52,905 nucleotides of DNA from Candidatus Enterousia scatequi (GTDB taxonomy: Bacteria; Pseudomonadota; Alphaproteobacteria; Rs-D84). A model generated the notes under the pieces. That model saw only the letters and a list, made by a program, of their open reading frames with translations. It searched no databases and was not told the origin of the DNA. The DNA lies in the NCBI GenBank assembly GCA_018064405.1, contig JAGHVG010000001.1, positions 1 to 52,905 of the forward strand, in the 5' to 3' direction. Positions 3,719 to 46,412 of the stretch are shown here, piece by piece; within the stretch, counting starts at the first letter, position 1, and every line of letters begins with the position of its first letter. The translations under genes were made by a program, and so were the position numbers.

Positions 3719-3746
3719 TTTTCTGTTAGGGTTTGTTTTAGACATA

Positions 3747-7735: not shown

Positions 7736-9354
7736 TGTATGAAGTTGGCAAGGATATTAATAAATTTGGTTTTAAGCGTGTGAATACTGCAACGGTCGCG
7801 CATCGGCGAATTAATTTTTTATATAAATGGATTATATGTTTGGTTTTTGCGGTGTTCGTTTGTAAAACACTGTTCTTGGGTATTCAGGGAAATGATATAA
7901 ATCATAATGATGAAAGCAGTTGGCTGAATGAACGTGCGGATATTTATGATAGAAATGGCGAGGTTTTGGCCAAAAATATTATTTCTGGTCATATTATGTT
8001 GCGACCCAAGGTGGTGACAGATGTTGATGCAACCGCGCAAGTGATACATCGGATTTTACCGGAATATTCTGTCAATGATGCAATCAAGTTAATAAATGAA
8101 TCTAGTTTCATTTATTTGAAAAAGTTTGCTACTGATGAACAACGACGCATAGTCAGAAATGCAAAGTTGCCGGGTTTGGAAATAGAACCTGTGAAAATGC
8201 GCCATTACCCCAAGGGACGTCGTTTTTCACACGTAGTTGGTTTTGTTGGAAATGATGGGCATGGTTTGGAAGGGGCAGAATTAACGTATGACGATTACTT
8301 AAGGCAGAATAAAGATCCGTTATATCTATCCGTTGATGCGCGTATTCAAGAACAATTTTATACACAACTAACAATCGCTATGCAGAAATATCAGGCCAGG
8401 GGTGCAATGGGAATGTTGATGGATTCACGAACCGGGGAAATGATTGCTATGGTATCGTTGCCCGATTATAACCCAGAACGCATAGGGTCAGATCCAGTGC
8501 GCAATCGTAAATTTAAACCTATGCGTGATGTTTTGGAAATGGGTTCAATCTTTAAGATATTTAATACCGCATTAGCGTACGAAAACGGAATTAATAAAAA
8601 ATATTATGTTGCAAAACCATATAATATACTTGATGCACGTGGGCGTGTGGCAACGACAATTCATGACGTTAGTTCGTTTAAACCATCACATCCAAATTTT
8701 ACAGTTGATGAAATTATGTTACATTCGTGTAATGTCGGCAGTGTTCAAATTGCACTGGACTTGCCAGATGGTGCCCAGAAATCATTTTTTGAACGTGTGC
8801 ATTTATCAGAACCCTTGAATTTGGAATTTGGTAAAACAGAACGGTCTTTGATGCCTAAAAAGTGGGGACCTGTGGAAAAGGCAACCGTATCGTTTGGTCA
8901 TGGAATATCGGTGACACCAATGCACCTGTTGCTGGCGGTTAACGCAATGACAAATGGTGGTATTTATATTTATCCAACATTGCTTAAACGAAATATTGGG
9001 CGTGTGGTTGGTGAACGCGTTTTGGACGATGGAATATCGGCAAAGTTGCGTGAAATAATGGTCCGTATTGCAGAGGAAACAAGTGGTAAACAGGCGCGTG
9101 TTTCAGGAATAACAATTGGTGGTAAGACCGCAACAGCAGAAAAACGTGATAGTGCAGGTAAGGCAGATTCAAAAAGAAATACAACTGCATTTATTGGTGT
9201 TTTCCCTGCAGAAGCACCGCAATATATTATTTTGGTTGTTCTGGATGAACCACAGGGAACAAAAGAATCCTGGGGATGGCGAACGGCTGCATGGAATGCG
9301 GTGCCAACAACAGGAAAAATATTAGATGGAATCCTGCCATTGCTATTTGAATAA
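7735..9354 (+). CDS. ftsI: Penicillin-binding protein 3 / FtsI-type transpeptidase
   Basis: N-terminal TM anchor and PBP dimerisation region. SxxK (GSIFK) and SxN (HSCN) are present; the third motif reads KTA (GGKTATAEK) instead of KTG. Confidence 0.9.
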   Translation: MYEVGKDINKFGFKRVNTATVAHRRINFLYKWIICLVFAVFVCKTLFLGIQGNDINHNDESSWLNERADIYDRNGEVLAKNIISGHIMLRPKVVTDVDATAQVIHRILPEYSVNDAIKLINESSFIYLKKFATDEQRRIVRNAKLPGLEIEPVKMRHYPKGRRFSHVVGFVGNDGHGLEGAELTYDDYLRQNKDPLYLSVDARIQEQFYTQLTIAMQKYQARGAMGMLMDSRTGEMIAMVSLPDYNPERIGSDPVRNRKFKPMRDVLEMGSIFKIFNTALAYENGINKKYYVAKPYNILDARGRVATTIHDVSSFKPSHPNFTVDEIMLHSCNVGSVQIALDLPDGAQKSFFERVHLSEPLNLEFGKTERSLMPKKWGPVEKATVSFGHGISVTPMHLLLAVNAMTNGGIYIYPTLLKRNIGRVVGERVLDDGISAKLREIMVRIAEETSGKQARVSGITIGGKTATAEKRDSAGKADSKRNTTAFIGVFPAEAPQYIILVVLDEPQGTKESWGWRTAAWNAVPTTGKILDGILPLLFE

Positions 9355-9397
9355 ATTTACGCTATAATTATTCTGATAATAAAAAAAAGAGTAAAGC

Positions 9398-11143
9398 GTG
9401 AGAAGTATAGTTGATAAGTCCGTGTTGGGTCAAACATGGATGTTGCCTGATGATATTGGTATTGGCGGTGATAAAGATTTTGTAACAAATATTTTGCATC
9501 TACGTGGAATTGTTGATGATGCTGATGTTATGCGGTTTTTGTCGCCTAGTGTTAAGGATTCTATGCCAAATCCGTCTGTGTTGCGTGATATGGATAAAGC
9601 AGTGAGTGTTATCATTAACGCAATTTGTGCAAAACAGAAAATAGCAATATATGGTGATTATGATGTTGATGGAATAACATCAACTGCAATATGCGTAAAA
9701 TATTTACGTGCGATTGGATGTGATGTTGTGTGGTATATTCCAACGCGTGATGGTGAAGGATATGGGTTAAATAACAGTGCGATTGATAAGTTGGCTGATT
9801 TGGGTGTTAATTTAATATTAACCGTTGATTGTGGAATAAGTTGTGTTAGTGAGGTGGAATATGCAAAATTGCATGGTTGCAATATCGTAATTACGGATCA
9901 TCATTTACCAGAAGTTTTATTGCCAGATGCAGACGCGGTCGTTAATCCCAAACGTATAGATGATGAATCTGGGCTAAATTATTTGGCTGGGGTTGGCGTT
10001 GCGTTTTTGGTGTTGGTGGCGTTAAACCGTGAACTAAAAAAATTAGATACTTTTAAAGATGTTGTTGATGGTATTAATTTGTTGGATTATTTGGACTTGG
10101 TTTCTTTGGGGACAATATGCGATACAATGCCATTGATTAATTTAAATCGTGCATATGTTGCCACCGGTTTAAAGGTTATGGATTTACGTCATAATTTGGG
10201 ACTTAAAACATTAATGGATGTCGCCAAGGTCAAAAAACCAACAGTATATTCGGCTGGGTTTGTTTTGGGACCGCGCTTAAATGCGGCGGGACGTCTTGAT
10301 TCGGCAGAACCAGCGTTGGAATTATTATTGACTGATAATCCATTAATTGCGCGTGATTTAGCGGAAAAATTGCACGCAATGAATCAGGAACGTGTCGACA
10401 TTCAAAACGCTATTATGGTTGATGCCATAGACAAGGCGCAAAAATGCTGCGATAAGGGCAGGTGCAGTTTATTCGTTTGTGGTGATGGATGGCATGGTGG
10501 AATTATGGGTATAATAGCTGGGCGATTAAAGGATAAGTATAACCTGCCAACGTGTGTCGCAACAAAAATAGATGGTGTAATAAATGGCTCTGGGCGTTCT
10601 GTGGCCTCGGTAGATTTGGGTAAAATTATTCATGATGCAATTGACGCCGGGATTGTGTCTGAAGGTGGTGGCCATGCGGCTGCGGCTGGGTTTTCGTTGC
10701 CTGAAAATAAAGAACAGGATTTTTGTGAATTCTTAGAAAATGCTGTGATGAAGCAATTAAATGGGGCAAAGCCCACGCCAACGGTAATGGTGGATGCAGA
10801 ATTAGATGCGTCAGGGGCAAATATGGGGTTGGTTCGTGAACTATCTAAAATGGAGCCTTTTGGTCAGGGAAACCCTGAACCTGTGTTGGTGCTACATGGT
10901 GCGGTTTTACGGTTCGCGTCTGTTATGGGATCTGGTTCGCATTTACGTGGAACGGTTGGAACATCAAATGGAACAAATTTGTCGTTTGTTGGGTTTAATT
11001 TGGTTGGAACACCGGTGGGTGATTTTTTACTGGACGATGCGAATACAAATACTAAAATAACAATGCTGGGACGATTGAAAGAAAATGATTATAACGGTCG
11101 TATCAGCGCACAGTTCACACTAGAAGATATCGCGATTTTATAA
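9398..11143 (+). CDS. recJ: Single-stranded-DNA-specific exonuclease RecJ (GTG start)
   Basis: DHH motifs (IYGDYDVDGITS, ITDHHLP), a DHHA1 region (GGGHAAAAG) and a C-terminal OB-like domain; 581 aa. Confidence 0.92.
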   Translation: MRSIVDKSVLGQTWMLPDDIGIGGDKDFVTNILHLRGIVDDADVMRFLSPSVKDSMPNPSVLRDMDKAVSVIINAICAKQKIAIYGDYDVDGITSTAICVKYLRAIGCDVVWYIPTRDGEGYGLNNSAIDKLADLGVNLILTVDCGISCVSEVEYAKLHGCNIVITDHHLPEVLLPDADAVVNPKRIDDESGLNYLAGVGVAFLVLVALNRELKKLDTFKDVVDGINLLDYLDLVSLGTICDTMPLINLNRAYVATGLKVMDLRHNLGLKTLMDVAKVKKPTVYSAGFVLGPRLNAAGRLDSAEPALELLLTDNPLIARDLAEKLHAMNQERVDIQNAIMVDAIDKAQKCCDKGRCSLFVCGDGWHGGIMGIIAGRLKDKYNLPTCVATKIDGVINGSGRSVASVDLGKIIHDAIDAGIVSEGGGHAAAAGFSLPENKEQDFCEFLENAVMKQLNGAKPTPTVMVDAELDASGANMGLVRELSKMEPFGQGNPEPVLVLHGAVLRFASVMGSGSHLRGTVGTSNGTNLSFVGFNLVGTPVGDFLLDDANTNTKITMLGRLKENDYNGRISAQFTLEDIAIL

Positions 11144-12094
11144 ATGAAAGAAAATGTTAAATCTTTGATAGAAAAAATAGCAACGGCAAATTCTATTGCG
11201 GTTATTGCACATAAGAATCCGGATGCAGATGCCCTGTGCAGTGTGTTGGCAATGCGTCAACTGATAAAACTGAATTTTAACAAGGATTGTGTTTGTGTGT
11301 ATGATGGTAATATTCCTGAAAATTTAGAAATGGTGCCATTACGTCCATTGTTAAAATATTACGAACATACAGATTTATCCGTTGCGTACGATTTGGTGAT
11401 ATTATTGGACTATGGTACGGTTAAGAATATTGGCGGTCCACAGGTTATTATTGATAATGCTAAATTTGTTGCCGAAATAGATCATCATAAAAACGACAAT
11501 AAATTGGGCGCACTTTGCATAGATAATGAAAATGCTGTTGCCACAGGTGAGGTTTTGTTTGATATCCTTACAGAAGCAAACTGGAAAAAAGATAATTTCA
11601 TTTCGGATTTAATTGCGCTGGCAATATTGACTGATTCGGGAAATTTTAAATTTGCGCGTAATGGGAACGCATTGCGTATAATGGCACAGTTGGTTGATGG
11701 TGGGGTTAATATTGGTAAATTGTTGGCATCATTAAATAATAAACCACCCAAGGCGGTTCAGACAGAGGCACGTGTCGCATCAGAAGCAGAGTTTTTTTAT
11801 CATAAACGTTTGGTTTTGGCGACAATGTCCACGCGCGATTATCGGCATATTGATGGTCGTGGGGAAATTGTGCTAGGGTTGTTAAATCAAATCAAGGGTG
11901 TTGAGTATATTGTGTTGCTAAAACAGCAAAAGCAGGACCAGATAGGGGTTTCATTGCGCAGTAAAACACAACCTGTTAATCAAATCGCAGAGGCGTTGGG
12001 GGGTGGTGGTCATATGTTTGCATCGGGTGCAGTTGTTCGCGATAGTTTGGAAAATGTGCGTGCTAAAGTTTTAGAATTATTTAAAGGAATATGA
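11144..12094 (+). CDS. Stand-alone DHH-DHHA1 phosphoesterase (NrnA / DhhP / Pde2-like)
   Basis: AHKNPDADALCS, LLDYG, IDHHKN and GGGGHMFASG motifs; 316 aa. Its start abuts the recJ stop (TAAATG). Confidence 0.8.
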   Translation: MKENVKSLIEKIATANSIAVIAHKNPDADALCSVLAMRQLIKLNFNKDCVCVYDGNIPENLEMVPLRPLLKYYEHTDLSVAYDLVILLDYGTVKNIGGPQVIIDNAKFVAEIDHHKNDNKLGALCIDNENAVATGEVLFDILTEANWKKDNFISDLIALAILTDSGNFKFARNGNALRIMAQLVDGGVNIGKLLASLNNKPPKAVQTEARVASEAEFFYHKRLVLATMSTRDYRHIDGRGEIVLGLLNQIKGVEYIVLLKQQKQDQIGVSLRSKTQPVNQIAEALGGGGHMFASGAVVRDSLENVRAKVLELFKGI

Positions 12095-12714
12095 GAGAGA
12101 TGAAAAAAATATTTATTCTAATTTGTTGTTTGTTTGTGGCATCGGGGGCAGGTGCCACGGTTGATAAGAATTTGGTGTCGGCGGCAGAAAAATATTTAAA
12201 TTCTGTGACGGGGTTGTCGGGTGATTTTATACAGAGTGCGAACGGAAAATCTGACAAAGGAACATTTTCTATGTTACGCCCTGGGCGTGTTAGGTTGGAT
12301 TATGATTCATTGCCGGTTCAATTAATTTCAGATGGCGAGGATTTGTATTTCTTTGATAAATCGTTAGATCAAATTACAACGGTTCCGTTGACCAGTACAC
12401 CAGCTGGTATATTGGTGCGCAAAAATATAAATCTGCATAGTGCCGATATTGTTGTTGATGAAACAACCGATGGTGACAATACGTTTGCTTTAAAAATGTA
12501 CATGCGGGATCAAATTGGACTCGGGACGATGACGGTTGTTTTTGATAGGCAACCTGTGAAGTTAAATTCCTGGACTGTTGTTGATGCCACTGGGGCAAAA
12601 ACAAATGTGACATTTCATGATTTGAAAACAAAGACAAATTTTGCCAAGGATTATTTTCAGATTCAACGGCATAAAATGGTTAATACTGCCGGTGGTGACG
12701 ACTTTTACGATTAA
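12091..12714 (+). CDS. lolA: Outer-membrane lipoprotein carrier protein LolA
   Basis: Signal peptide, then the LSGDFIQS...GTFSMLRPGRVRLDY pattern typical of LolA. Overlaps the preceding gene by 4 nt. Confidence 0.8.
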   Translation: MREMKKIFILICCLFVASGAGATVDKNLVSAAEKYLNSVTGLSGDFIQSANGKSDKGTFSMLRPGRVRLDYDSLPVQLISDGEDLYFFDKSLDQITTVPLTSTPAGILVRKNINLHSADIVVDETTDGDNTFALKMYMRDQIGLGTMTVVFDRQPVKLNSWTVVDATGAKTNVTFHDLKTKTNFAKDYFQIQRHKMVNTAGGDDFYD

Positions 12715-18563: not shown

Positions 18564-18920
18564 ATGTATGAATTAATGCAACGTTTAATCGCATTTAAAT
18601 ATGCATGTAAAATACATCATTGGTCAACAGACAACTATTCAATGCATTTGTTATTTGATAGATTAACAGAGCATGTTGATGATTGGACAGATAGTATCGC
18701 TGAATGTTATTTTATGGCAAATGGACATAAAGATGTTTTTAAGGCGAACATTTTAAATCCCAAATATATATCGGATGATTTAATCAAAACATGTACTGAT
18801 GTTATTTCTTTTATAGAAAACGCCATAGAAAATGAAGAATTAAATGAAGGTATGGTTTCTTTGTTAACAGATATAGAAGCTGGATTATTAAATAAATTAG
18901 CATTGGTTAAATTAAACTGA
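18564..18920 (+). CDS. Compact Dps/ferritin-like four-helix-bundle protein (118 aa)
   Basis: KIHHWSTDNYSMHLLFDRLTEHVDDWTDSIAECY retains the H...H...D...E ferroxidase-ligand spacing of Dps. AAAGGAGG SD. Confidence 0.55.
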   Translation: MYELMQRLIAFKYACKIHHWSTDNYSMHLLFDRLTEHVDDWTDSIAECYFMANGHKDVFKANILNPKYISDDLIKTCTDVISFIENAIENEELNEGMVSLLTDIEAGLLNKLALVKLN

Positions 18921-18922
18921 TA

Positions 18923-18948
18923 AAAAAACCGCATTTAAGCGGTTTTTT
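18923..18948 (+). terminator. Intrinsic terminator after the Dps-like gene
   Basis: AAAAAACCGC-ATTTAA-GCGGTTTTTT. Confidence 0.65.
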
Positions 18949-18960
18949 GTTTTAGTGTTA

Positions 18961-18994
18961 TAATAAAAATCGTCTGAAGTATTTTTCAGACGAT
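18961..18994 (-). terminator. Intrinsic terminator after the OMP gene
   Basis: ATCGTCTGAA / TTCAGACGAT 10-bp stem. The T-run lies on the minus strand (TAATAAAA on plus). Confidence 0.6.
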
Positions 18995-19014
18995 TTGGTT
19001 CTTGGGTGTGTTTG

Positions 19015-19623
19015 TTAGAATTTGAATCTAATACCAATATCACCACCAAAATTATGCAATCCTGATGCAATATCAACATAGTTATAGCGTCCTGCAATAT
19101 CGACTGCAAAACGATTCATGTCAAATGTTACACCAACTGTTCCCATACCAGAGAATTTTGTTTTGCTTAAAGAAGATGCAGGGCCACTTGCGTCAACATC
19201 TACGAATGCAATACCTAACCCAATACCCACAAATGGACGAATAACATCCCAATCGCCAAATTCCATATAGTTGTTCATCAACAGTGTTTGTAATTTTGTT
19301 GATAATTCAATACCTTGGATGTCGCCAAAATCTTTGGTGTCTTTTGCTTTGGTAAAGATAGAATATTCAATTTCGCTGCGCCATGTTTTGCAAACCTCTA
19401 AACCTAATGCTGCATGACCTTGCCATACCATGTCACCGGCTGTTTCCTTGGCATCATTAAATCTGTAGTTCAGATTGGTGTAGCTTAATCCACCATGAAC
19501 GCCGATATATGTGTTTAATCCCCACAGTTGCCATGTGCTTTCGGTTGGGTATTCTGAATATGCACCTGCAAATGCTGGGCAGGCAATTAATAATGCCAAT
19601 GTTGATATTGCTAGTTTTTTCAT
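19015..19623 (-). CDS. Small outer-membrane beta-barrel protein (OmpA-like TM / Opa-porin family)
   Basis: Signal peptide ending AFA, alternating amphipathic beta strands, and a terminal ...IGIRFKF with C-terminal Phe. Confidence 0.75.
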   Translation of the reverse strand: MKKLAISTLALLIACPAFAGAYSEYPTESTWQLWGLNTYIGVHGGLSYTNLNYRFNDAKETAGDMVWQGHAALGLEVCKTWRSEIEYSIFTKAKDTKDFGDIQGIELSTKLQTLLMNNYMEFGDWDVIRPFVGIGLGIAFVDVDASGPASSLSKTKFSGMGTVGVTFDMNRFAVDIAGRYNYVDIASGLHNFGGDIGIRFKF

Positions 19624-19771
19624 TTGTTTTCTCCTTTGATGTAAAGTTTTTGTGTTTAACTTTTCATGTCAACAATTAGATTTTAACAAACAAATATTTA
19701 TTTTGATACAGGTATGGATACCTAATTTAATGCTTTAAGAAAAAAATCTTATGTGCTATGGTATCTTCGTG

Positions 19772-21313
19772 ATGAGAAAAATATATACGCTTTTGTTTGG
19801 AATAACAATATCTGCTAATGCAATGGCAGAGGTGTTAACAGGTTGTTTGCCTGGCCAGCAGTGTAATTTGGTAGAAGGTGTCTTGTATACAAATACAGGG
19901 GTTATTGATACCGGTGGACAGTTTAATGTTATTAGTGGCAAATCGGTTCAGGTGCAAAACAGTGGAACAATAAAAAATGTTTTTTATATACAAGATGTTG
20001 CGTTTTTGACACAAGTTATAAAATCAAATAATGATGTAACGGTGTTGCCTGTATCAGTAATAGACAATGGTAGGTTCGATTTGTTGATTGATGGTAATAA
20101 TAATGTTACCAATCCGATATCTTTGGCAAGAATTGTTGCTGTTTCAGACAAGGCAGATACAATACAAATTAACAACATGACGTATTTATCACTTGATTCA
20201 GGGTTTAATTCTGGGGGGTTGAAAGGTAAAACAATAAATGTAGCAAATGGGGATTTAGTATGGATAGATATCGCAGATGATTTTAATAATTTTGATTCGC
20301 CTATATTTTATAATAATACTTTTAATATTAATAATATGCCTAAGGTTATTTCGTCTGATACCTTAGCGTCATTGTTTTATTTTTCTGCTTCGGAGCACGA
20401 TGGTGCGTTATACATTAGTCGTCAAAGAGCCACCAACTATACAAATATATTGAATAACAAGATGGGTGCTTTTTTGGACGATATACGGCGCGATAATCCA
20501 AATGATGCTTTGTTGCGCAGGTTGGATTCTGCAGTAAGTTTAGGCGAAATTGATGATATTATTAAATCTGCAGCCAGGTTGAATCCAATTAATCTGATGG
20601 ATTCTGTTCATGCAATTAATATGTTCAATATAAATGACTTGCAGCACTTGGGTGCAGGATTCAGATTTATGTTGAAACCAGTGTTTGTATTTGGGTCGGG
20701 TTTTCAATCTGTGGGTGGTAAAATGTCTGTGTCATCGGATGTTTCAGATAAATTGTATATAGCGTTATCTGGGTATGGATATAAATCATTCTATGATAAA
20801 GATGCAGATAATTATGATGTGATGACATTCGGTGGTGATTTACGGCTGGATTATGTCGGTGATAATATCTTTGTCCATGGGATGGCGGGTGCAAATATAA
20901 ATAATTTTAGTGTTGAATCTGTGTTTGATGGTGATGGGTCAACAGATAATCCGTCGGGGCATAGTTTTTATGCATATGCTGATGGTGGATATAAATTCGT
21001 TTTATCTGATGATATTAGTTTGCGTATGTTTGGTGGTGTGGGTATGGATACGCTATCTATATTGAATGATAAAAAGAATAATTTGTTTGGTCGCGCAGGG
21101 TCTGATATATCATATGATATTAAAACGGGTGATGTTGTGTATGAATATGATGGACGTATATCGATAAATACATTTGGATATTTAGATGCTGCGCTTGGTG
21201 CCAATGTCTGGTTAAATTCTGATGATGCTGGTGGTGGTATATCCGTCAGTGTGTCGGATAGTGATTTGGGATGGATTGGTAAAGTTTCCGCTAATGTTAG
21301 ATTGCTATTTTAA
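19772..21313 (+). CDS. Autotransporter-like outer-membrane protein (passenger + C-terminal beta-barrel)
   Basis: Signal peptide MRKIYTLLFGITISANAMA, an Asn/Gly/Ile-rich passenger, and a C-terminal beta-strand region ending ...VSANVRLLF. Confidence 0.65.
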   Translation: MRKIYTLLFGITISANAMAEVLTGCLPGQQCNLVEGVLYTNTGVIDTGGQFNVISGKSVQVQNSGTIKNVFYIQDVAFLTQVIKSNNDVTVLPVSVIDNGRFDLLIDGNNNVTNPISLARIVAVSDKADTIQINNMTYLSLDSGFNSGGLKGKTINVANGDLVWIDIADDFNNFDSPIFYNNTFNINNMPKVISSDTLASLFYFSASEHDGALYISRQRATNYTNILNNKMGAFLDDIRRDNPNDALLRRLDSAVSLGEIDDIIKSAARLNPINLMDSVHAINMFNINDLQHLGAGFRFMLKPVFVFGSGFQSVGGKMSVSSDVSDKLYIALSGYGYKSFYDKDADNYDVMTFGGDLRLDYVGDNIFVHGMAGANINNFSVESVFDGDGSTDNPSGHSFYAYADGGYKFVLSDDISLRMFGGVGMDTLSILNDKKNNLFGRAGSDISYDIKTGDVVYEYDGRISINTFGYLDAALGANVWLNSDDAGGGISVSVSDSDLGWIGKVSANVRLLF

Positions 21314-29143: not shown

Positions 29144-30472
29144 CTAATCCTTTGATATCGCCATTTGTATTAACTGTTTTGATTCTACTAAAAATTCCAT
29201 GGGCAACCTTTCAATAACGGGTGATGCATTTGCACCGATTATCAATGCAGTTGCTGTGTCTGAATCAATTCCACCCATTTCTAAGTATAATAATGTTGCT
29301 GGGTCTATGGCACCGGTTGTGGCTTCGTGTGATTGGTGATTTGTTCCGTTGCTGTGAACAATGGTTGGTAATGTATTCGCAACTGCGTTATCCCCGATTA
29401 TGCGTGAATCACATTTTGATGCGTTTGTACAGTTGTCACCAATAAAGTTAACCATACTCCTAAACGTTTGTCGCGATTCATCCAACGCAACACCGTATGA
29501 TAATATGTTTGATGTTGTATTGTTACCAACGTGAATCATTTTCGTACCCGTATCAGATTGTTGTGCGCCACGTGTAATTGTTAAAGAATAAAAATCGCTA
29601 TGCGCATTGTTTCCGGATAAAATCGTAGATGGATATTTCCATGTCATTGCAGATCCGATTTCTATCTGGGTCCAATCTAATGACGCATTATTTTCGCATT
29701 TACCACGTTTGGTCACAAAGTTTAATATGCCACCTGATTGGGTGCCACCAGTATATTTCCCAGAATACCAATTTTGAACAGTGGAATATTTTACATGCGC
29801 GTTGTCTTTTACAATAATTTCAACAACCCCGCTGTGTAATTGGTGGTTTGGACGTCGTGGGGCACTGCAACCTTCCATATAACTAAGTTCGGAACCCTTG
29901 TCGGCGATAATAAGCGTTCGTTCAAATTGTCCTATTTTGGCGGTTTCTATACGAAAATAACTGGCCAAATCAATTGGGCACCTGACATTTTCGGGGATAT
30001 ATACAAATGTTCCATCGGAAAATACGGCTGAATTCAATGCTGCGAAGAAATTATCTGTTTTGGGAACGACACTGCCCAGATACTGTTTTACTAAATCCGG
30101 GTATAAATGGACCGCGTCAGACATTGGTAAAAATATTATTCCTAGTTTTTTCAATTCGTCTGTATAGGATGTGTGTACAGATTTGCTATCAATTACCGTA
30201 TCTGTTGCCATCCCAAGTAATGCCTGTTGTTCTGAATCTGGTAACCCCATTTTTTTATAGGTTTCAATCAATTCTGAATTGTCAATGTGTGCAGTATCGT
30301 TATAATAATTTAAATCGTTATAGTTTATTGGGGCGTAATCTATTTCAGCCCAATGCGGTTCGGACATTTTTTGCCATTCGCGAAAAGCATCTAGGCGCCA
30401 ATCAAGCAACCATTTGGGTTCTTGTCTGCGAAGCGATATTTCACGAATAAGATTTTCAGATATCCCTGTCAT
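29144..30472 (-). CDS. sufB: Fe-S cluster assembly scaffold SufB
   Basis: N-terminus LIREISLRRQEPKWLLDWRLDAFREWQKMSEPHW is SufB-like, followed by a beta-helix core (..GVVEIIVKDNAHVKYSTVQNW..); 442 aa. Confidence 0.9.
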   Translation of the reverse strand: MTGISENLIREISLRRQEPKWLLDWRLDAFREWQKMSEPHWAEIDYAPINYNDLNYYNDTAHIDNSELIETYKKMGLPDSEQQALLGMATDTVIDSKSVHTSYTDELKKLGIIFLPMSDAVHLYPDLVKQYLGSVVPKTDNFFAALNSAVFSDGTFVYIPENVRCPIDLASYFRIETAKIGQFERTLIIADKGSELSYMEGCSAPRRPNHQLHSGVVEIIVKDNAHVKYSTVQNWYSGKYTGGTQSGGILNFVTKRGKCENNASLDWTQIEIGSAMTWKYPSTILSGNNAHSDFYSLTITRGAQQSDTGTKMIHVGNNTTSNILSYGVALDESRQTFRSMVNFIGDNCTNASKCDSRIIGDNAVANTLPTIVHSNGTNHQSHEATTGAIDPATLLYLEMGGIDSDTATALIIGANASPVIERLPMEFLVESKQLIQMAISKD

Positions 30473-31013
30473 TGCCTGTTGGTGCTGCTAGTTGTTGGGC
30501 CTGGGCAAAAAAGGTTATAGATTGTCCAAGTAGACCATCAGTAAATGTCGATGTAAGAATGCCATCAGGATCAGTTGTTGTTAAATAATTTAACAATTTG
30601 TTTGCACGTGCCATATAGTTATCAACGTTGCGTGCAATTTCAGGGTCTAGTTTTATTCCACGACGTAATTTTTCAAGTACGAATGGGTTCTTGGCGTATT
30701 CGTCCATTATGCCGCCGATTGCCCGCCATAATGGATGTTCGTTTGTTGATCGGGGCATTACATCCGTTAATGCCATAATGGGAATCAGGGCCTGCAATAA
30801 ATCTTCGTAAATAATTTCTGCGTGCTCTGCGACAGTGTTTGTCGCGTTCTTCGTTTTTAATACAGATTGTATTTTTACAATAAGGTTATATTGGTATTCC
30901 AATGTCTTATTTATGTTTGCGATGCGGTTGCTGTTTTTATATTCATAAATCAGTATGACCAAAATGCCAATTATTAGTGTGCCGAATAGAGTTAATAGCA
31001 GTATATTATTCAT
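30456..31013 (-). CDS. Hypothetical membrane-anchored protein (185 aa)
   Basis: One N-terminal TM helix and a helical remainder. Overlaps the sufB start by 17 nt. No recognised motif. Confidence 0.55.
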   Translation of the reverse strand: MNNILLLTLFGTLIIGILVILIYEYKNSNRIANINKTLEYQYNLIVKIQSVLKTKNATNTVAEHAEIIYEDLLQALIPIMALTDVMPRSTNEHPLWRAIGGIMDEYAKNPFVLEKLRRGIKLDPEIARNVDNYMARANKLLNYLTTTDPDGILTSTFTDGLLGQSITFFAQAQQLAAPTGNDRDI

Positions 31014-31091: not shown

Positions 31092-31120
31092 TTGCACCGA
31101 TTCGACCAAATTGTTATAAT
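31092..31120 (+). promoter_or_regulatory. Sigma70-type promoter (TTGCAC-17-TATAAT) for the secretin module
   Basis: TTGCAC 31092-31097 and TATAAT 31115-31120. Confidence 0.5.
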
Positions 31121-31155
31121 AAAAATAATTTAAGGATTTAGGAAAGGAAAATACT

Positions 31156-32073
31156 ATGTTCCGTAAGATTTTGATTATAGCAATGTCTATGACTGCAGCG
31201 GGCTATTGCTTTGCTGCTGATGGATTACCACAGGTTGTCACATCAGAAGTTTTTTATTCGCAGGATCGTGATATTGATGAAAATGTTTATGTTGATACGG
31301 TTGATGTACAACGTAGCATAGAACGTCCGGTTGCGGTTCCGGCGTGGCCAATTGTTGGTTCTGATGCCGATGTTACGGTCGGTTGTGGTGATTCGGTGTG
31401 TTCTGATGCGTCTGATGATAATATTCGTATTGTTTCTAAGATTGGTAATGATTTAATCATAGAAAACAATTTTGATTTAGGGGCACGGGGGGATTTTACA
31501 GGTTGGTCCGGTGGCGCAAATATGTTACATGGTAATCAAATTCCTGTCGGATTTGATGATGAATGTGCGTCTGGATTGGAAATGCCACTGTTGCGTCGCG
31601 AAGTGTTAGAGGATGATGGTGGTAATGTGTTGGCTGTGTCACGCAGTGCGCGAAAAAATTGTACTAAATATGCAGATGGTTATACGGCTTACTTGGCACG
31701 TATGGGATTGACCGAGAAAGATGTTGACCAGGGGGCCGAGATAACCCAAGAAGTTACAGAAGAAGAAATTGGGGTAAACGTCACTGCTGATGCGGAATCG
31801 CCCGCGATATTAATGGATCAGGTGCGTTCATGGGTTGTTGCAAATGGTCAAACCTTGCGTGAGGTTTTGCAAAACTGGTGTGACAAAGAAGGTTGGGATT
31901 TGGTGTGGACAACATCACGCGAATATCCAATAGAAGCAAGTGCTGTGTTCAAAGGACGTTTTGTTGATGTCGCGTCTGCGTTGGTTCGGAATTTTGGTCG
32001 TGCAACACCTGTCCCGTATGCAAAATTTTACAAAGGGAATCGTGTGTTGGTGATTTCCACAACCGAAGAATAG
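31156..32073 (+). CDS. Exported protein with C-terminal TcpQ/PilL-type domain
   Basis: Signal peptide and an acidic N-terminal part. The C-terminus WVVANGQTLREVLQNWCDKEGWDLVWTTSREYPIEASAVFKGRFVDVASALVRNF...YKGNRVLVI matches the TcpQ/PilL C-terminal domain pattern as I remember it. Confidence 0.65.
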   Translation: MFRKILIIAMSMTAAGYCFAADGLPQVVTSEVFYSQDRDIDENVYVDTVDVQRSIERPVAVPAWPIVGSDADVTVGCGDSVCSDASDDNIRIVSKIGNDLIIENNFDLGARGDFTGWSGGANMLHGNQIPVGFDDECASGLEMPLLRREVLEDDGGNVLAVSRSARKNCTKYADGYTAYLARMGLTEKDVDQGAEITQEVTEEEIGVNVTADAESPAILMDQVRSWVVANGQTLREVLQNWCDKEGWDLVWTTSREYPIEASAVFKGRFVDVASALVRNFGRATPVPYAKFYKGNRVLVISTTEE

Positions 32074-32106
32074 TTAGGGTATTCAATCGCCGTAGGAGAA
32101 ATGAGT

Positions 32107-33663
32107 ATGAAAAAATTTATGGAATTATTTGTCGTATGCGGAATTGTTTGCGCGGGGTTGGTTGGGTGCGCAACAAAATATTCAGCAGAGGTTGCAGGAA
32201 CTGTTGATCAGGATTTTGTTAATGCGTATGATGCGTTTGAAATGGCTAAAAATCCACGCGCACGTGTTGCAAGTGGTGATACTGTTTCTATGTCTGAAGG
32301 TGTGTGGCTGGGCAATAAATCAACGGTCTTGGAACATCGGAATAGTTTGCCTGCGGCATTAGAAACGGATACAGGTGTTACATTATTAATGGATGAACCG
32401 GTTACAATTCAGGTTTTGGCAAATAATATTAATTCGGTTACAGGAATCCCGGTAAAAATTGATAGCCAGGTAGATTCTGAAAAACTGAAAAAAACAATGA
32501 ATGTTGCGTATACTGGTAAGTTGTCTGGATTGTTATCCCAGGTTGCAACTGATTTGGATTTACTGTGGTATTATGATAAGAATTCTATTGTTTTTTATGA
32601 AACAGAAACACGCACGTTTACATTGTATGCGCTGGGGACAGATATTTCATATCAAACCTCTGTTGAAACAGACAATAATAACCAAGTATCTTTGGAATCC
32701 ACGTTAAAGGAATGGGATGAAGTTGAAAATGCTATAAATGCAATTATTGGACGTAACAGTAATTCTGAATTTACGGTATCACGCAGTTTGGGAACAATAA
32801 CTGTTACTGCATCACCATCGGTATTGGCACGTGTTGGTGAATATATAGAAAAACAAAATAAACGTCTGTCACAGTTGGTGACTATTGATGTCAAAGTTTT
32901 GCAGGTGTCGATTGCAAATAATTCTGCGTTTGGGTTAAATTTGGCTGCGGCTGTTAATACTGTATCGGGATTGGAAATAGTATCCAACCCAAAGACCCCG
33001 TTGGCCACAACAGAGGCAAGTTCATTAAATGTTGCAGTATTAAAAGAAGCCGCAGCGGGTGGATCGTTGGAACGTGTTGCGGGATCTAGCGCATTGGTTC
33101 AGGCGTTGGCAAAACAGGGCAAGGTTTCGTTGGTTACAAACGTTGGTGTCACAACCCGTAATAATCGTGTTGCGCCGGTGAACAACACGACACGTACCGG
33201 ATATATTAAACGTTTTGAATCGCGTAACTTTACGACCGTTGAATCATCAACTGTTGACCAGGAAGATTTGGAAACTGGTTTTTCAATGCAGTTATTGCCA
33301 AATGTTTTGGAAAATGGGCGTATATTGTTGTTGTTCAGAATGTCTGTTCGTGAATTGTTAAAGATGAACACGCAGACGATAGGTGAAGTGACTCTGCAAT
33401 TACCAGAAGTGGAAGAACGTAGTTTTATGCAGGAAGTTATTATGGAATCGGGTCAAATGTTGGTGGTTTCTGGGTTTGAAAAACAAACAAATAATGATAC
33501 ACGTTATGGCTTAGGCGAAGCGGACTTTATGGCGCTGTCTGGATCACGTGAAAGCAAATCGGAACGTGATGTGTTGGTCGTTATTTTGACCCCGCAGGTT
33601 TTGATTAGTCCTATGGATGCTGAAAGAACAATTCAGCAACATTGGGGTGCACCGTTAAATTAA
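32107..33663 (+). CDS. Lipoprotein secretin, type IVb pilus (R64 PilN / TcpC / BfpB-like) family
   Basis: Lipobox GLVGC. C-terminal secretin domain (VTTRNNRVAPVNNTT..., GFSMQLLPNVLENGRILLLFRMSV, PEVEERSFMQEVIMESGQMLVVSGF, RDVLVVILTPQVL). AGGAG at 32094-32098 favours the ATG at 32107 over 32101. Confidence 0.8.
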   Translation: MKKFMELFVVCGIVCAGLVGCATKYSAEVAGTVDQDFVNAYDAFEMAKNPRARVASGDTVSMSEGVWLGNKSTVLEHRNSLPAALETDTGVTLLMDEPVTIQVLANNINSVTGIPVKIDSQVDSEKLKKTMNVAYTGKLSGLLSQVATDLDLLWYYDKNSIVFYETETRTFTLYALGTDISYQTSVETDNNNQVSLESTLKEWDEVENAINAIIGRNSNSEFTVSRSLGTITVTASPSVLARVGEYIEKQNKRLSQLVTIDVKVLQVSIANNSAFGLNLAAAVNTVSGLEIVSNPKTPLATTEASSLNVAVLKEAAAGGSLERVAGSSALVQALAKQGKVSLVTNVGVTTRNNRVAPVNNTTRTGYIKRFESRNFTTVESSTVDQEDLETGFSMQLLPNVLENGRILLLFRMSVRELLKMNTQTIGEVTLQLPEVEERSFMQEVIMESGQMLVVSGFEKQTNNDTRYGLGEADFMALSGSRESKSERDVLVVILTPQVLISPMDAERTIQQHWGAPLN

Positions 33664-33686
33664 ACGTTTTCGTATAGAGGGGTGTC

Positions 33687-33974
33687 ATGTTTAAGTGGAC
33701 TTCGTTTTTGTACGTTTTTAGTTTGGTTTGTTTGATGAGTGTTGTATCTGTTGCGGATCCTGTTCCTGCAAGTTTAACCACAAAAAGTTATGTTGATTCT
33801 GCTGTTGCTTATGTGTCAGCGAAAATACCTAATTCTTATACAAAAACAGAAACTGATAATTTATTAAATGCTAAAGCCTCATCTGACGATGTGCGTTTTA
33901 ATACTGTTGCAACGTCGCAACCTGAGGGTAGCCCCCCTGAGGGTCAGGTATTTATATGGGTTTCTACAAATTAA
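33687..33974 (+). CDS. Small exported protein (95 aa) with phage-tail-fibre-like sequence motifs
   Basis: Signal peptide ...MSVVSVA/DP, then TTKSYVDSAVAYVSAKI and YTKTETDNLLNAKA. GAGGGG SD. Confidence 0.55.
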   Translation: MFKWTSFLYVFSLVCLMSVVSVADPVPASLTTKSYVDSAVAYVSAKIPNSYTKTETDNLLNAKASSDDVRFNTVATSQPEGSPPEGQVFIWVSTN

Positions 33975-33975: not shown

Positions 33976-34006
33976 AAAAAACCGTCATTTGGTGACGGTT
34001 TTTTTA
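33976..34006. terminator. Bidirectional intrinsic terminator (secretin module / rpsT)
   Basis: AAACCGTCA-TTTGG-TGACGGTTT flanked by A- and T-runs. Confidence 0.7.
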
Positions 34007-35035: not shown

Positions 35036-35887
35036 ATGTACAAGGTGTTTTCATTTGTTGTGTTGTGTTTAATTGTGACGGGTACTTGGGCGGATGACGG
35101 TGTTGCGCGTGGTCGTGCTGGGTTGGCGGGTGCCGCACGTGTTACAACACTTGCACAGTTGCAGTCGTCAAAAAAACAGACACCAAATATTCAGGTTGCG
35201 GACAGTGCTATTCCGATGGATCCTGAAAAAACAGGCCCTAGTATTGTTGATCAAAATGAAGCAAAACCTGCACCACAGCAGGATAGAAAGGATATGCGCG
35301 AAAAAGAAAGATCTGCATGTTTGAATAATAATATTGGTGTTGGTAATACGTTTGTTTGGGCATCACGTTATAGTAATACTTCAAATTATTCATATATGGT
35401 TGAAGATATGGAAGAACCTGAAAATAATGTTTGCTTTGTCAAGGTGGATATGCGTTCTGATGATGCGCGTATTTCGCTGTCTGATGTGCCGAGTAAATAT
35501 TTTCAATGGGGTCAAAACATTACATGTGGTTCGTGGACTGATGAGGATTCTTTGCGTCAGCGTATTTTGGATGCTAAAAAGACCGGACGGACATGGGGAA
35601 CCGTTGCTGGTGCGGTTGGTGGTGCCGGATTGGGTGTTGGTGCGATGGAATTGTTTGGAAACAAATTGATAGGTGGTGCTGTTGAAGGTCAACAAAGAAA
35701 GGATCTGTCAGATGTTGAAAAGTTGCAGGCACAGTTATCAAACTTGAAGCGGGAAAATGAATCAGCATATAATGATTTAGTTGAAGATATGCGGAATTTG
35801 GAAAAAGCATGTTTGGCTGCTGGCGATAATGCGCCAAGCATTTGTGATAGTGATTATATCAGGGTGTTAGACAAATTGAATAAATAA
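35036..35887 (+). CDS. Hypothetical exported protein with Gly-zipper membrane segment and coiled-coil tail (283 aa)
   Basis: Signal peptide, Cys-containing middle domain, WGTVAGAVGGAGLGVGAMELFGNKLIGGAVEG, then a heptad-like tail. Confidence 0.6.
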   Translation: MYKVFSFVVLCLIVTGTWADDGVARGRAGLAGAARVTTLAQLQSSKKQTPNIQVADSAIPMDPEKTGPSIVDQNEAKPAPQQDRKDMREKERSACLNNNIGVGNTFVWASRYSNTSNYSYMVEDMEEPENNVCFVKVDMRSDDARISLSDVPSKYFQWGQNITCGSWTDEDSLRQRILDAKKTGRTWGTVAGAVGGAGLGVGAMELFGNKLIGGAVEGQQRKDLSDVEKLQAQLSNLKRENESAYNDLVEDMRNLEKACLAAGDNAPSICDSDYIRVLDKLNK

Positions 35888-38681: not shown

Positions 38682-40013
38682 ATGAAAAAATTTTTATTTG
38701 TATTAATGGCTTTGGTTGTATGTTCTGGGGCATTTGGGGGTAGTAATATTTGTGGTAAAGAAATGTCTGTTAGCTTTGAAGGAACGCAAAAACCGAAAGA
38801 CAACGAGTTTGTTTATTTTGATGAAACCAGTTATAAATCTGCGGACAAGTATTATAAAAAAAACAGTGTGTCGTTGACTGGGGGTGTATGGGAATGTGAC
38901 AACGATCATTGTCAGCAGGGTAAAGAGATTGAAGCCCCAGCAGGTCACGTTTTTGGTGGAATAACGTACCCTGTACCTAAGAGGTATAGATGTGTTTTAG
39001 GAATGATTGACGATTATTGGGTTTGGGTAAATGATGGTTGCACGTTTAATGGTGAGTTTATAGATGTAGAGAAAGAATATCCTGAATTAGTGTCTTATGC
39101 AGATTGTTGGAATACAGATCAACAAAGTGTATTAAGGTTTTCACAAGATATGAAGTTTAGACTGCTATGTACAGGACCGGGTAATTTGAAGTGTGTTCCA
39201 GAAACAGAATGTGTTGAGAATGCATCTAAGGAGTGTGTGGTGGCAAATGCTGCGGAAGCTGTGCAGATTTGTAAAGGTGGTAAGTGGGGAAATTGTAAAG
39301 TAAGAAAATGTCAGAGTAGTTATCATCAGGTTGGTAATACGTGTGTAAAAGATAGCCAAGAACAAGTGTCGTGTAAAGACAAACGGACAACACCGGAAGG
39401 TAAGGCGTGTTGTGATGTTGAGTCCACAGTGGCGGTTTGGCATAATAATAAATGTGAATGTGTAAATGGTGGTGCATTTGTTTATGGTGCTGGAATTCAA
39501 CCGTATTGCAAAGTGACACAATCCAGCACAACCGTGACAGAATATCAATGTGATGATGCAAAATTGGCACAATTGCGTGGTTGGATGGTTGAATATAGAA
39601 ACAATACGCAAATTGTAACTATGATACAAAATGTTATTGAACAATGCGATAATCATACTATAAGTGAAGGTAGTTTTACGACTACTTATCTGATGATAGA
39701 ACGTATGATACAGGACTTGGTTGCAGATCAAAGTACCCAAAAAATTAATGATTTGGCGGGGCGGATAGACACAAAAATTGAAAAGTTGGGTTTAGATTTG
39801 AAAAAATGGCGGAATGTTGACGGGTCATTTAATACTGCACGTTTGGCATCTGATTCGATTGCGGGGGTTGTGCTCGGAACAGTTGGTGGTGTTGTCACCA
39901 GCAGCATTATTAAAAAGAATCAGGTCGCAGACGGATTTGAAGATATTAAATGTGCCATTGGTGGACAATCAGTTGCATCATACGGTGATCAATTTAGTGT
40001 CGGATTACAATAA
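38682..40013 (+). CDS. Hypothetical Cys-rich exported protein with C-terminal Gly-zipper membrane segment (443 aa)
   Basis: Signal peptide MKKFLFVLMALVVCSGAFG, many Cys in CxxC/CxC-like spacings, and IAGVVLGTVGGVVTSSII near the C-terminus. Confidence 0.6.
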   Translation: MKKFLFVLMALVVCSGAFGGSNICGKEMSVSFEGTQKPKDNEFVYFDETSYKSADKYYKKNSVSLTGGVWECDNDHCQQGKEIEAPAGHVFGGITYPVPKRYRCVLGMIDDYWVWVNDGCTFNGEFIDVEKEYPELVSYADCWNTDQQSVLRFSQDMKFRLLCTGPGNLKCVPETECVENASKECVVANAAEAVQICKGGKWGNCKVRKCQSSYHQVGNTCVKDSQEQVSCKDKRTTPEGKACCDVESTVAVWHNNKCECVNGGAFVYGAGIQPYCKVTQSSTTVTEYQCDDAKLAQLRGWMVEYRNNTQIVTMIQNVIEQCDNHTISEGSFTTTYLMIERMIQDLVADQSTQKINDLAGRIDTKIEKLGLDLKKWRNVDGSFNTARLASDSIAGVVLGTVGGVVTSSIIKKNQVADGFEDIKCAIGGQSVASYGDQFSVGLQ

Positions 40014-45923: not shown

Positions 45924-45977
45924 AAGAAATATGATAGAATATTAATTATAAAATAGCAAATAAGAGGTGAAAATATT

Positions 45978-46412
45978 ATTCAAGAATCTGGACGTTCAAT
46001 GATTGAAATGTTAGGGGTACTCGCCATTATGGGTGTTATTACGGTGGGTGCAATAGGGATGATTACATCTGCAATGCGTATGCAAAAACAGAGTACCGTT
46101 AACGATGACGTTGTTATGATGGTAACGTCTGTGCGTCAATTGTTGGGTGAATATGACGATTTTTCTAACATAGATAACTCTACGATATTTACAGCAATCG
46201 GTATGAAAAACAAGAATCCGTATGGTGGAAATTATGCGTTGGCGGTAAACCCATCAAATGCTAGACAATTTATAGTTTCAATTGATGGGTTGTCTAAATC
46301 TGATTGCAAAACATTAACAACCAAGGCGTGGACTGATTCTGTGAATGGTGCCCAGGGTGAATGTGATAAGGACACAAGCGATAATATTGTCAAAATTATT
46401 TATGGCGAATAA
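45978..46412 (+). CDS. Type IV pilin-like protein (type IVb-like N-terminus); probable non-ATG (ATT) start
   Basis: In-frame upstream codons give ..QESG/RSMIEMLGVLAIMGVITVGAIG, with Gly at -1 and Glu at +5 of a prepilin-peptidase-type site. AAGAGGTGA SD at 45962-45970 sits 5-8 nt before ATT 45975/45978. The first ATG (45999) lies inside the motif and has no SD. Extended -10 TGATAGAAT at 45932-45940. Confidence 0.65.
   Translation: MQESGRSMIEMLGVLAIMGVITVGAIGMITSAMRMQKQSTVNDDVVMMVTSVRQLLGEYDDFSNIDNSTIFTAIGMKNKNPYGGNYALAVNPSNARQFIVSIDGLSKSDCKTLTTKAWTDSVNGAQGECDKDTSDNIVKIIYGE

Follow-up and report, generated by a model that had tools for sequence, protein, structure and literature searches.

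A type IVb-type secretin gene pair of Candidatus Enterousia that probably belongs to a pilus encoded at scattered chromosomal loci

The window analysed here, a stretch of 52,905 nucleotides, comes from Candidatus Enterousia, a lineage of the order Rs-D84 (Alphaproteobacteria) with genomes smaller than 1 Mb. Positions 31156–33974 of its forward strand encode three proteins: an exported 305-aa secretin partner of the TcpQ/BfpG/PilL type (g1, 31156–32073), a 520-aa lipoprotein secretin of the PilN/BfpB/TcpC type (g2, 32101–33663; 518 aa from position 32107 in the public gene call) and a Sec-exported 95-aa protein (g3, 33687–33974). All three open reading frames lie where a sequence-only reading of this DNA had placed them. 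That reading had also assigned the module its own promoter, and a sigma-70-type candidate, TTGCAC-17-TATAAT, can indeed be read by eye upstream of g1 on the forward strand (31092–31120, with the −10 element TATAAT at 31115–31120). However, the −35 element TTGCAC, starting at 31092, matches the hexamer at only three of six positions, the site falls under the threshold of a consensus scan, and promoter-like sites are no more common in the region than in shuffled sequence; as a candidate promoter of g1 it is plausible. The strong terminator predicted for the module was recovered between g3 and the convergent rpsT (33976–34004), where a 12-bp stem with a 5-nt loop is flanked by T-runs on both strands, as is characteristic of a bidirectional intrinsic terminator.

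The g1 protein begins with a Sec-type signal peptide, and its first 200 residues are acidic (38 D+E versus 14 K+R) and contain a conserved block at about aa 121–170. The C-terminal part (aa 221–305) is an N0-like TcpQ domain, matched both by Pfam TcpQ (PF10671, aa 224–301, E = 5e-18) and by the BfpG chain 9u5s_R (aa 219–303, E = 6e-15), and across 36 orthologs this domain has a mean identity of 94% to the window sequence. In g2 the lipobox LVGC occupies aa 20–23, and every one of the 38 distinct full-length N-termini of orthologs has a Cys at the position that closes the signal peptide; from its sequence, g2 is a secretin that is itself a predicted lipoprotein, without a separate pilotin. The Pfam Secretin model (PF00263) is covered in full by aa 335–501 (E = 6.5e-14), aa 125–501 align to aa 142–528 of BfpB (9u5s_A, E = 4.5e-44), and a tblastn comparison with bfpB covers aa 1–501. 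Identity to plasmid PilN and to BfpB is 25–34%, over at most 96% of the length of g2. The domains, signal peptide, acidic region and lipobox read from the letters alone are thus all borne out.

When g2 was typed with HMMs, as the sequence-only reading had proposed, the top NCBIfam family was TIGR02520 (PilN, type IVB) with 262.2 bits, which is short of the equivalog cutoff of 287.65 bits; the runner-up was MshL with 92 bits. We considered and rejected a type II secretion GspD, as the NCBIfam matches include no GspD family, and none of the loci compared showed a Gsp gene. A Tad/Flp pilus (RcpA/CpaC, TadA) was likewise rejected, because the best family of g2 is PilN, the T2SSF gene is single, and PilO2 and PilP are present; nor is the pilin encoded in the window, at about 145 aa, a Flp-like short pilin. 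The T2SS and Tad/Flp names given to relatives at NCBI and JGI are automatic and generic.

All species sampled (about 30 species-representative genomes) carry the g1–g2 pair at the same place, flanked by suf and rpsT, in the gene order TM185-g1-g2-[slot]-rpsT-plsY-p283-dprA-dnaA, and the two genes are adjacent in all loci compared. The base composition of the pair is that of the surrounding DNA. Together, the shared position and the local composition indicate that the pair is ancestral to the genus and was not, as had been proposed, inserted between suf and rpsT. Selection on both genes is strongly purifying, with dN/dS of 0.05–0.12 for g1 and 0.03–0.09 for g2 at dS of about 0.9–1.6, similar to rpsT and plsY, and the ratio is also low inside the window's own subclade; with values of 0.03–0.12 overall, g1 and g2 are therefore real genes and not chance ORFs. 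Neither DnaA nor DprA is conserved as well as the secretin, with an identity across the genus of 74–80% for the secretin versus 54–76% for DnaA. The nearest secretin, at 96% identity, lies on JBKSNB010000122.1 of KH370_54, a metagenome-assembled genome of the genus Enterousia (Table 1, PMC12306168). An exact look-up of the 518-aa call of g2 returned only a 6.3-kb Logan contig, and exact look-ups of the 520-aa g2 and of EF-P gave no match. Conservation of the cassette holds for g1 and g2 in all of these species but not for g3, which is missing or replaced in most of them, and a three-gene unit is thus not supported.

As had been noted from the sequence, the 53-kb window contains no pilus motor genes: Pfam searches of gene-like ORFs from about 110 aa upwards found no T2SSE, T2SSF or A24 protein there, and phmmer with BFP and PilL–V seeds matched only g1, g2 and a pilin among the window ORFs. 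Genes for Lnt and LolA are present. The lone pilin gene (45975–46412, forward strand) encodes a prepilin-type protein with the leader M-I-Q-E-S-G / R-S-M-I-E-M-L..., read from an apparent ATT start behind the SD sequence GAGGTG, and is the sole place in the window at which a class III signal (G at −1, E at +5) is joined to a hydrophobic helix. Orthologs with 65–91% identity, named as T2SS or pseudopilin proteins in their sources, start with MKQESG followed by RSMIEMLGVLAIMG and keep the class III signal intact, and phmmer matches to BfpA reach E-values down to 5e-9. Classical type IVb pilins have a leader of about 13–30 aa and a large mature protein; with a leader of 6 aa and a mature part of about 139 residues, the window pilin falls outside that class and is type IVa- or pseudopilin-like. 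No pilin paralogs were seen near the motor genes described below, the best 120 matches all being orthologs. The product of 45975–46412 is likely to be the subunit of the fibre, which would thread the g2 channel.

The module had been described as orphan, but congeners encode PilO2, PilP, a BfpD/PilQ-type ATPase and a BfpE/PilR-type platform protein on the contig that carries the secretin. These genes form a block among housekeeping genes that is homologous to BfpC/BfpD/BfpE and to R64 PilO–R. Pfam assigns PAP_PilO (E = 2.7e-7), T2SSE (4e-62) and T2SSF (4e-24), and PilP scores 46 bits against TIGR03021 (cutoff 34.65). By phmmer, the ATPase matches BfpD (7e-81) and plasmid PilQ (5e-86) and the platform protein matches BfpE (1e-56) and plasmid PilR (5e-61); against GspE, the ATPase reaches 213 bits with a cutoff of 630, below its BfpD and PilQ scores. 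A first scan for the ATPase with the Walker A expression G.TGSGK had given no match, because the Enterousia motif is GPTSSGKST, and plasmid homology seeds then found it. In one congener (L046), the secretin (666–2294) and the ATPase (18573–20204) share a contig. In another, ERZ1026780 NODE_1 (935,024 bp), the motor block lies at ~234.3–239.0 kb (L089) and the secretin and the conserved pilin at ~350.7–352.3 kb and ~368.6–369.0 kb (L127), placing the block ~112 kb from the secretin and ~130 kb from the pilin. It is from these congeners that the block is known, and not from the window's own genome or its nearest relatives, KH370_54 and MJ170. The ATPase is 85–94% identical among its best 120 matches, on gut-metagenome contigs of up to 947 kb, and a VirB-type T4SS adjoins the motor block. 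The Enterousia loci retrieved, 2.45 Mb in all and a redundant sample that covers only part of a genome, yielded neither an A24 prepilin peptidase (phmmer seeded with BfpP and with an A24 protein of a Salmonella plasmid, and motif scans) nor a retraction ATPase. Two candidates were rejected: a weak BfpP match (L084:17572–18279) is not a multi-pass membrane peptidase and looks RecO-like by eye, and a 331-aa ATPase (L145), compared by its length and Walker A motif alone, resembles T4SS VirB11 and not a PilT retraction ATPase.

The congener motor block and the conserved pilin on the secretin contig indicate a type IVb operon that has been split, in the R64 order L-N / O-P-Q-R / S, over at least three loci. 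In our view g1 and g2 probably constitute the outer-membrane secretin complex of such a scattered chromosomal type IVb pilus, and the Candidatus Enterousia genome that encodes it is smaller than 1 Mb. The homology of the pair, its conservation, the purifying selection on it and the presence of the motor block on the same contig in congeners are direct observations. The motor block and the pilin favour the first of two options offered by the sequence-only reading, in which the module would supply the outer-membrane portion of a dispersed type IVb pilus. In relatives, moreover, pilus assembly genes lie elsewhere without a secretin of their own, a finding which that reading had named beforehand as speaking against a novel arrangement. 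The window module is most probably a canonical type IVb secretin pair with its partner genes outside the window, and no novel secretion system that works on its own.

The 95-aa g3 does carry the signal peptide of the exported protein it had been taken for, and matches no Pfam or NCBIfam family. It is not a conserved member of the module; it belongs to a family of fibre-like exported proteins found in a hypervariable slot, which measures 77 bp to 4.3 kb between the secretin and rpsT across species. The nearest long-contig relatives (L005 and L006) both lack g3, L007 has a version of 83 aa, and elsewhere the slot holds other genes. All eight family members in 1.77 Mb of Enterousia loci, a sample biased to this region, stand immediately 3′ of the secretin; they range from 83 to ~504 aa, with the window protein near the short end. 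Common to them are an N-terminal signal peptide with a (D)IAS.xYV(D/Q) motif and the C-terminal end ...AAGDDxRFxT..P.G.PP.G.V.IWFN, separated by a middle of variable length, and the long members contain phage tail/head-fibre repeats. The family evolves fast (dN/dS 0.46), as surface-exposed proteins do. TcpF of the V. cholerae TCP is a precedent for a Sec-exported soluble protein that leaves through a type IVb machine, CofJ of ETEC CFA/III is a comparable case, and export of a g3-type protein by the pilus machinery is possible.

That the type IVb machine would mainly export or display these fibre-like proteins, with g3 as a minimal cargo with conserved ends, is suggested by their position, signal peptides, common ends, repeats and rate of evolution, but we consider it unlikely. 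Species with a family member in the slot make up only about a quarter; in others it is empty (a 77-bp spacer) or occupied by unrelated genes, including a multicopy Cys-rich family. The link is positional only and comes from a region-biased sample, and the slot may be a permissive insertion site by the terminator. We are just as doubtful that the Sec-exported proteins of this genus-specific slot family, which in the sampled loci is confined to that position, are cargo or tip adhesins of the machine, like TcpF and CofJ or like PilV. If they were, the g3 of the window would be a minimal version with the two recognition ends only, and a tiny-genome, partner-dependent gut bacterium would possess an exchangeable attachment fibre.

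Another reading to which we give little weight is a DNA-uptake (competence) pilus that would supply nucleotides or serve transformation, acting together with the nearby dprA. The conserved neighbourhood includes dprA 2 kb downstream, the organism has no nucleotide biosynthesis (PMC12306168), and the short pilin leader is like that of type IVa and competence pilins. However, dprA is near-universal and sits here in the housekeeping block plsY-p283-dprA-dnaA, the components are type IVb, of the R64/BFP class, no ComEC or ComEA gene was noticed in passing, and the retraction ATPase was not found in the 2.45 Mb of redundant, part-genome loci.

Considerably less probable still is the second option offered from the sequence, a stand-alone channel in which g1 and g2, free of any motor, would pass the 95-aa protein or other periplasmic cargo over the outer membrane. 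Its appeal lies in a 53-kb window without a motor gene, in motor evidence that comes from congeners and none of it from the window's own subclade, and in a gene with a Sec signal peptide directly downstream. Yet congeners in which the pair is syntenic also carry, on that contig, the pilin and the full PilO2-PilP-ATPase-platform block, and a window pilin with an intact prepilin signal would be senseless without an assembly machine. The absence of g3 from L005, L006 and most species leaves no conserved co-encoded cargo. With motor genes in congeners and g3 absent or replaced in most species, this option loses its basis, and we know of no motor-less secretin export system. That the pair is a non-functional leftover of a lost pilus operon, as might be imagined in a strongly reduced genome (PMC12306168) for which the motor is known from congeners only, is highly improbable in the face of intact frames, low dN/dS at substantial dS even in the window's own subclade, a secretin more conserved than DnaA or DprA and an invariant lipoprotein Cys.

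Under the preferred reading, a scattered type IVb pilus, g2 would be exported by Sec, acylated at its lipobox Cys and sorted by Lol. By homology to BfpB–BfpG, it would form a multimeric gated outer-membrane channel, and the C-terminal N0-like TcpQ domain of g1 would be placed around the periplasmic N3/LG region of g2, stabilising the multimer. The pilin of 45975–46412 would be polymerised by an inner-membrane machine of PilO2, PilP, ATPase and platform protein whose genes lie elsewhere, and the fibre would exit via the g2 channel. We infer both that g1 and g2 form a complex and that they serve the same machine in this particular genome. The most likely role of such a pilus would be attachment of a metabolically dependent organism to partner or host cells; adhesion, aggregation and the stabilisation of mating pairs are known roles of type IVb pili of the R64/BFP class. 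A study of Enterousia/Rs-D84 genomes (PMC12306168) reports type IV pili for another lineage only, and not for Rs-D84. The present analysis finds conserved, strongly selected type IVb pilus genes in the Enterousia lineage, namely those for the secretin, its partner, PilO2, PilP, the ATPase, the platform protein and pilins, which make the pilus a concrete candidate attachment device in a bacterium presumed to rely on other cells.

Among known systems, the R64 (IncI1) thin pilus, PilL–PilV, and related PilN plasmid clusters such as those of Methylovorus pMsip01 (L088) and of a Salmonella plasmid (L100) are alike in parts and order, with a TcpQ protein, PilN, PilO2, PilP, T2SSE, T2SSF and a pilin. 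The plasmid PilN clusters score higher against the Enterousia proteins than BFP does for the secretin (186 versus 159 bits), the ATPase (289 versus 272) and the platform (207 versus 185–192). Both g1 and PilL far exceed BfpG and TcpQ in length, and a VirB/Trb-type T4SS lies nearby in the R64 and plasmid clusters and in Enterousia alike. Unlike R64, the Enterousia genes are chromosomal and lie among housekeeping genes at three or more loci ~110–130 kb apart, and the PilV shufflon adhesin, the PilT transglycosylase and the PilU peptidase were not found beside the Enterousia block. The low identity of g2, its TIGR02520 score below the cutoff and the 6-aa pilin leader also set Enterousia apart from R64.

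The EPEC pair BfpB–BfpG (PDB 9u5s) shares with g2 and g1 a lipoprotein secretin without a pilotin and an N0-like partner encoded directly upstream, and proteins like BfpC, BfpD and BfpE occur in Enterousia congeners. BfpB–BfpG assembles as a 17:17 ring of a lipoprotein secretin and an N0-like partner that is essential for pilus biogenesis (PMC12531336). BfpG has 133 aa versus the 305 aa of g1, with its extra acidic region and second conserved block, and the EPEC bfp genes form a single 14-gene plasmid operon with a peptidase, a retraction ATPase and minor pilins, whereas those of Enterousia are scattered. The V. cholerae TCP, whose TcpQ gave the Pfam family its name, likewise combines a TcpQ-domain partner with a lipoprotein secretin (TcpC), but is encoded, unlike the Enterousia pilus genes, by a single pathogenicity-island operon.

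The TcpQ-domain protein (g1) and the lipoprotein secretin (g2) encoded in the window are a type IVb secretin-partner pair that most probably serves a dispersed chromosomal pilus system, and the novel minimal secretion arrangement entertained in the sequence-only reading is not supported. All three open reading frames of the proposed module were recovered on the plus strand. g1 (31156-32073, 305 aa) combines a Sec-type signal peptide with an N-terminal region of acidic character (38 D+E versus 14 K+R over residues 21-220) and a C-terminal Pfam TcpQ domain (aa 224-301, E=5e-18). The lipobox of g2 (32101-33663, 520 aa) is LVGC, and Pfam recognises a full-length Secretin domain in the protein (E=6.5e-14). 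By far the best NCBIfam model for g2 was TIGR02520 (PilN family, type IVB outer-membrane proteins), with a score of 262 bits, which is below the equivalog cutoff of 287.65; the runner-up, MshL, scored 92 bits. For g3 (33687-33974, 95 aa), a protein with a signal peptide, neither Pfam nor NCBIfam gave a match. g3 is followed by the expected strong terminator, a bidirectional hairpin at 33976-34004 common to the g3 side and the convergent rpsT. The promoter assigned to the unit, TTGCAC-17-TATAAT, is present at 31092-31120, but it does not reach the threshold of the scan, and the region shows no excess of promoter-like sites.

As had been noted, the window lacks pilus motor genes: Pfam scans of its large ORFs returned no T2SSE, T2SSF or A24 protein, and the other large ORFs with Pfam assignments are housekeeping only (lnt, thrS, sufS/E, PBP2, recJ, lolA, tatC, gatCAB, ruvX, suf, rpsT, plsY, dprA, dnaA, gyrB, dnaJ, pgsA, uvrC, rluD, asmA, dnaN, ppa and efp). 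Two further proteins had no family match. A 185-aa single-pass membrane protein (30456-31013, minus strand) is always the divergent neighbour of g1; with a stop that overlaps the sufD-like start, its gene probably leads the suf operon and does not belong to the pilus. A 283-aa exported protein (35036-35887, plus strand) is found between plsY and dprA in every species but evolves fast (44-74% identity, dN/dS 0.17-0.29). A 520-aa protein without a Pfam hit (19751-21313, plus strand), with a signal peptide and a C-terminal F, resembles an autotransporter or an outer-membrane beta-barrel.

The order of the 185-aa protein gene, g1, g2, a variable slot, rpsT, plsY, the 283-aa protein gene, dprA and dnaA is shared by about 30 species-level genomes, with gyrB in place of rpsT after g2 in three loci (L026, L031 and L044). 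Since the base composition of the module is also that of its surroundings, it is not a recent insertion, and the pair is ancestral where an inserted unit had been proposed. Secretin identity across the genus (74-80%) is above that of DnaA (54-76%) and DprA. With the related locus L007 as reference, dN/dS was 0.027 for g2 and 0.053 for g1, and with L005 it was 0.091 and 0.120; these values are similar to those of rpsT and plsY (dS about 0.9-1.6). The Cys closing the g2 signal peptide is present in 38/38 distinct full-length ortholog N-termini. Mean identity of the window's g1 to 36 orthologs is 94% in the TcpQ domain, 81% in a separate second block (aa 121-170, 31516-31665) and just 40% in the linker (aa 171-220).

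Since the window spans an entire contig, we sampled other parts of Enterousia genomes, using as bait a multicopy Cys-rich exported family, which has a copy in the window (38682-40013, plus strand) and others at L001 11685-13463, L025 8627-10222 and many other loci; the species-representative genomes yielded 79 loci and the metagenomes 77. These loci were searched by local phmmer with an annotated bfp operon and two plasmid PilL-V-type clusters as seeds, which identified a BfpD/PilQ-type ATPase (E=7e-81 to BfpD, 5e-86 to plasmid PilQ) together with a platform protein of the BfpE/PilR type (E=1e-56 to BfpE, 5e-61 to plasmid PilR). By Pfam and NCBIfam they belong to a four-gene block of PAP_PilO (PilO2/BfpC type), PilP (TIGR03021, over the cutoff), T2SSE and T2SSF, flanked upstream by DUF374-lpxK-lpxC and downstream by a gyrB/parE-type topoisomerase subunit gene, probably parE, and then UDG. 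In L089 the four genes lie at 8021-9280 (PilO2), 9270-9980 (PilP), 10001-11638 (ATPase) and 11640-12713 (platform). Identity among the 120 best ATPase matches, on gut-metagenome contigs of up to 947 kb, is 85-94%.

An orphan secretin is not supported, since congeners carry PilO2, PilP, ATPase and platform protein on the same contig as the secretin. In L046 the ATPase and secretin are 16 kb apart, and on ERZ1026780 NODE_1 (935,024 bp, practically a complete genome and one of several single-contig genomes of 0.91-0.95 Mb) the block lies at about 234.3-239.0 kb, with the g1-g2 pair ending near 352.3 kb and the pilin gene placed at about 368.6-369.0 kb. Both the pilin and the g1-g2 pair are intact in the window's subclade and remain subject to strong purifying selection there, and on these grounds we argue that the motor block is probably also present in the window's genome and its nearest relatives. 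No retraction ATPase was identified in the Enterousia DNA sampled. VirB3 and VirB4 genes lie 5-8 kb upstream of the motor block (L089-L096, 1-3400) and a VirB11-like ATPase gene elsewhere (L145, 14927-15922, minus strand); these are VirB-type T4SS parts. The interval between VirB4 and DUF374-lpxK (L089-L098, about 1000-4500) holds a strain-variable island whose cargo (restriction-modification systems, GmrSD/HNH, resolvase, Bro-N, SLFN/AlbA) differs between strains with an identical ATPase protein, which marks it as a defence-island hotspot.

The lone pilin is real (45975-46412, plus strand). It has the SD sequence GAGGTG, an apparent ATT start and the N-terminus MIQESG followed by RSMIEMLGVLAIMGVITVG..., where Gly occupies position -1 and Glu +5, and its prepilin motif has no second instance in the window. 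Its orthologs (65-91% identical; named T2SS/pseudopilin proteins in the source) start with ATG and MKQESG. The first ATG of the window's gene is at 45999, and its use would delete the prepilin leader. A second, diverged paralog, MKNESG followed by RSLIEIVGILAITGV..., is solitary, with dnaX on one side and a gene for an OmpA-like lipoprotein on the other (L065, 3239-3700, minus strand); the pilins are scattered as single genes. Conservation of the prepilin signal implies that a prepilin peptidase exists; none was found in the Enterousia DNA sampled, a redundant and partial sample.

The proposed three-gene unit reduces to the pair, since g3 is not conserved. The g2-rpsT slot ranges from 77 bp and geneless in the nearest long-contig relatives (L005/L006) to 4.3 kb, and may be empty or hold a Cys-rich family member or unrelated small ORFs; g3 and its L007 counterpart are only 46% identical (dN/dS 0.46). 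A jackhmmer search of 1.77 Mb returned eight g3-family members (about 83, 95, 120, 130, 150, 225, 334 and 504 aa), every one directly 3′ of the secretin, which share a signal peptide, N-terminal (D)IAS.xYV(D/Q) and C-terminal AAGDDxRFxT...P.G.PP.G.V.IWFN. Long members contain phage head-/tail-fibre repeats (PHROG 5711, E=3e-21; PHROG 23008, E=2e-16) and match Vibrio phage tail fibres by tblastn, while the window's g3 retains just the two family ends. TcpF and CofJ are precedents for a pilus-handled adhesin or cargo, and the position behind the secretin is suggestive of such a role for the g3 family, though a positional link does not amount to functional evidence. The Cys-rich proteins (the species-representative genomes hold 186 copies and the metagenome collection 127) occupy variable slots after dnaA, the secretin and the pilus platform gene. 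With hypervariable bodies and an invariant C-terminal 78 aa (…FNT[AS]RLxSDSIAxVVLGT…GFEDIxCxIGGQxVAxxGDxFxVGxQ, then stop), they resemble variable surface proteins specific to the genus.

g2 has hundreds of protein matches at 77-96% identity, in MAGs of gut and rumen origin labelled 'Alphaproteobacteria bacterium'; the closest (96%) is on JBKSNB010000122.1 of MAG KH370_54, a Candidatus Enterousia of order Rs-D84 (PMC12306168, Table 1). Genomes of this group are <1 Mb and lack flagella, respiration and pathways for making amino acids, nucleotides or lipids, and a partner-dependent lifestyle has been proposed; that paper mentions type IV pili for another lineage only (PMC12306168). The pilus-system genes are homologous to those of known systems, are conserved and co-occur in congener genomes; that g1 and g2 form a complex and that the cells are piliated is inferred. 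g2 would be exported, lipidated, Lol-sorted and built into a gated multimer whose periplasmic rings are hooped by the g1 TcpQ domain; PilP and PilO2 would join this channel to the ATPase-platform motor, which would polymerise pilin into a fibre leaving via g2. Attachment to partner cells is the most likely role, with DNA uptake and fibre-protein export as alternatives.

The pair resembles that of the EPEC bundle-forming pilus: g2 aa 125-501 align to aa 142-528 of BfpB (PDB 9u5s chain A, E=4.5e-44) and the g1 C-terminus matches BfpG (chain R, E=6e-15). BfpB, a lipoprotein secretin that requires no pilotin, forms a 17:17 complex with the N0-like BfpG, which clamps a region near the N3 ring and on which pilus biogenesis depends; TcpC-TcpQ is a homologous pair (PMC12531336). 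The second conserved block of g1 (aa 121-170) is not found in BfpG or TcpQ, and the short pilin leader is type IVa-like, unlike that of classical type IVb pilins. Annotated plasmid PilN and BfpB secretins are 25-34% identical to g2 and usually have a TcpQ-family gene directly upstream, as g1 precedes g2. The VirB parts near the motor block recall plasmids with a PilN-type thin pilus beside a Trb/VirB system. R64 and BFP have the same gene order (L-N, O-P-Q-R, S), but the Enterousia version is cut into three by housekeeping genes.
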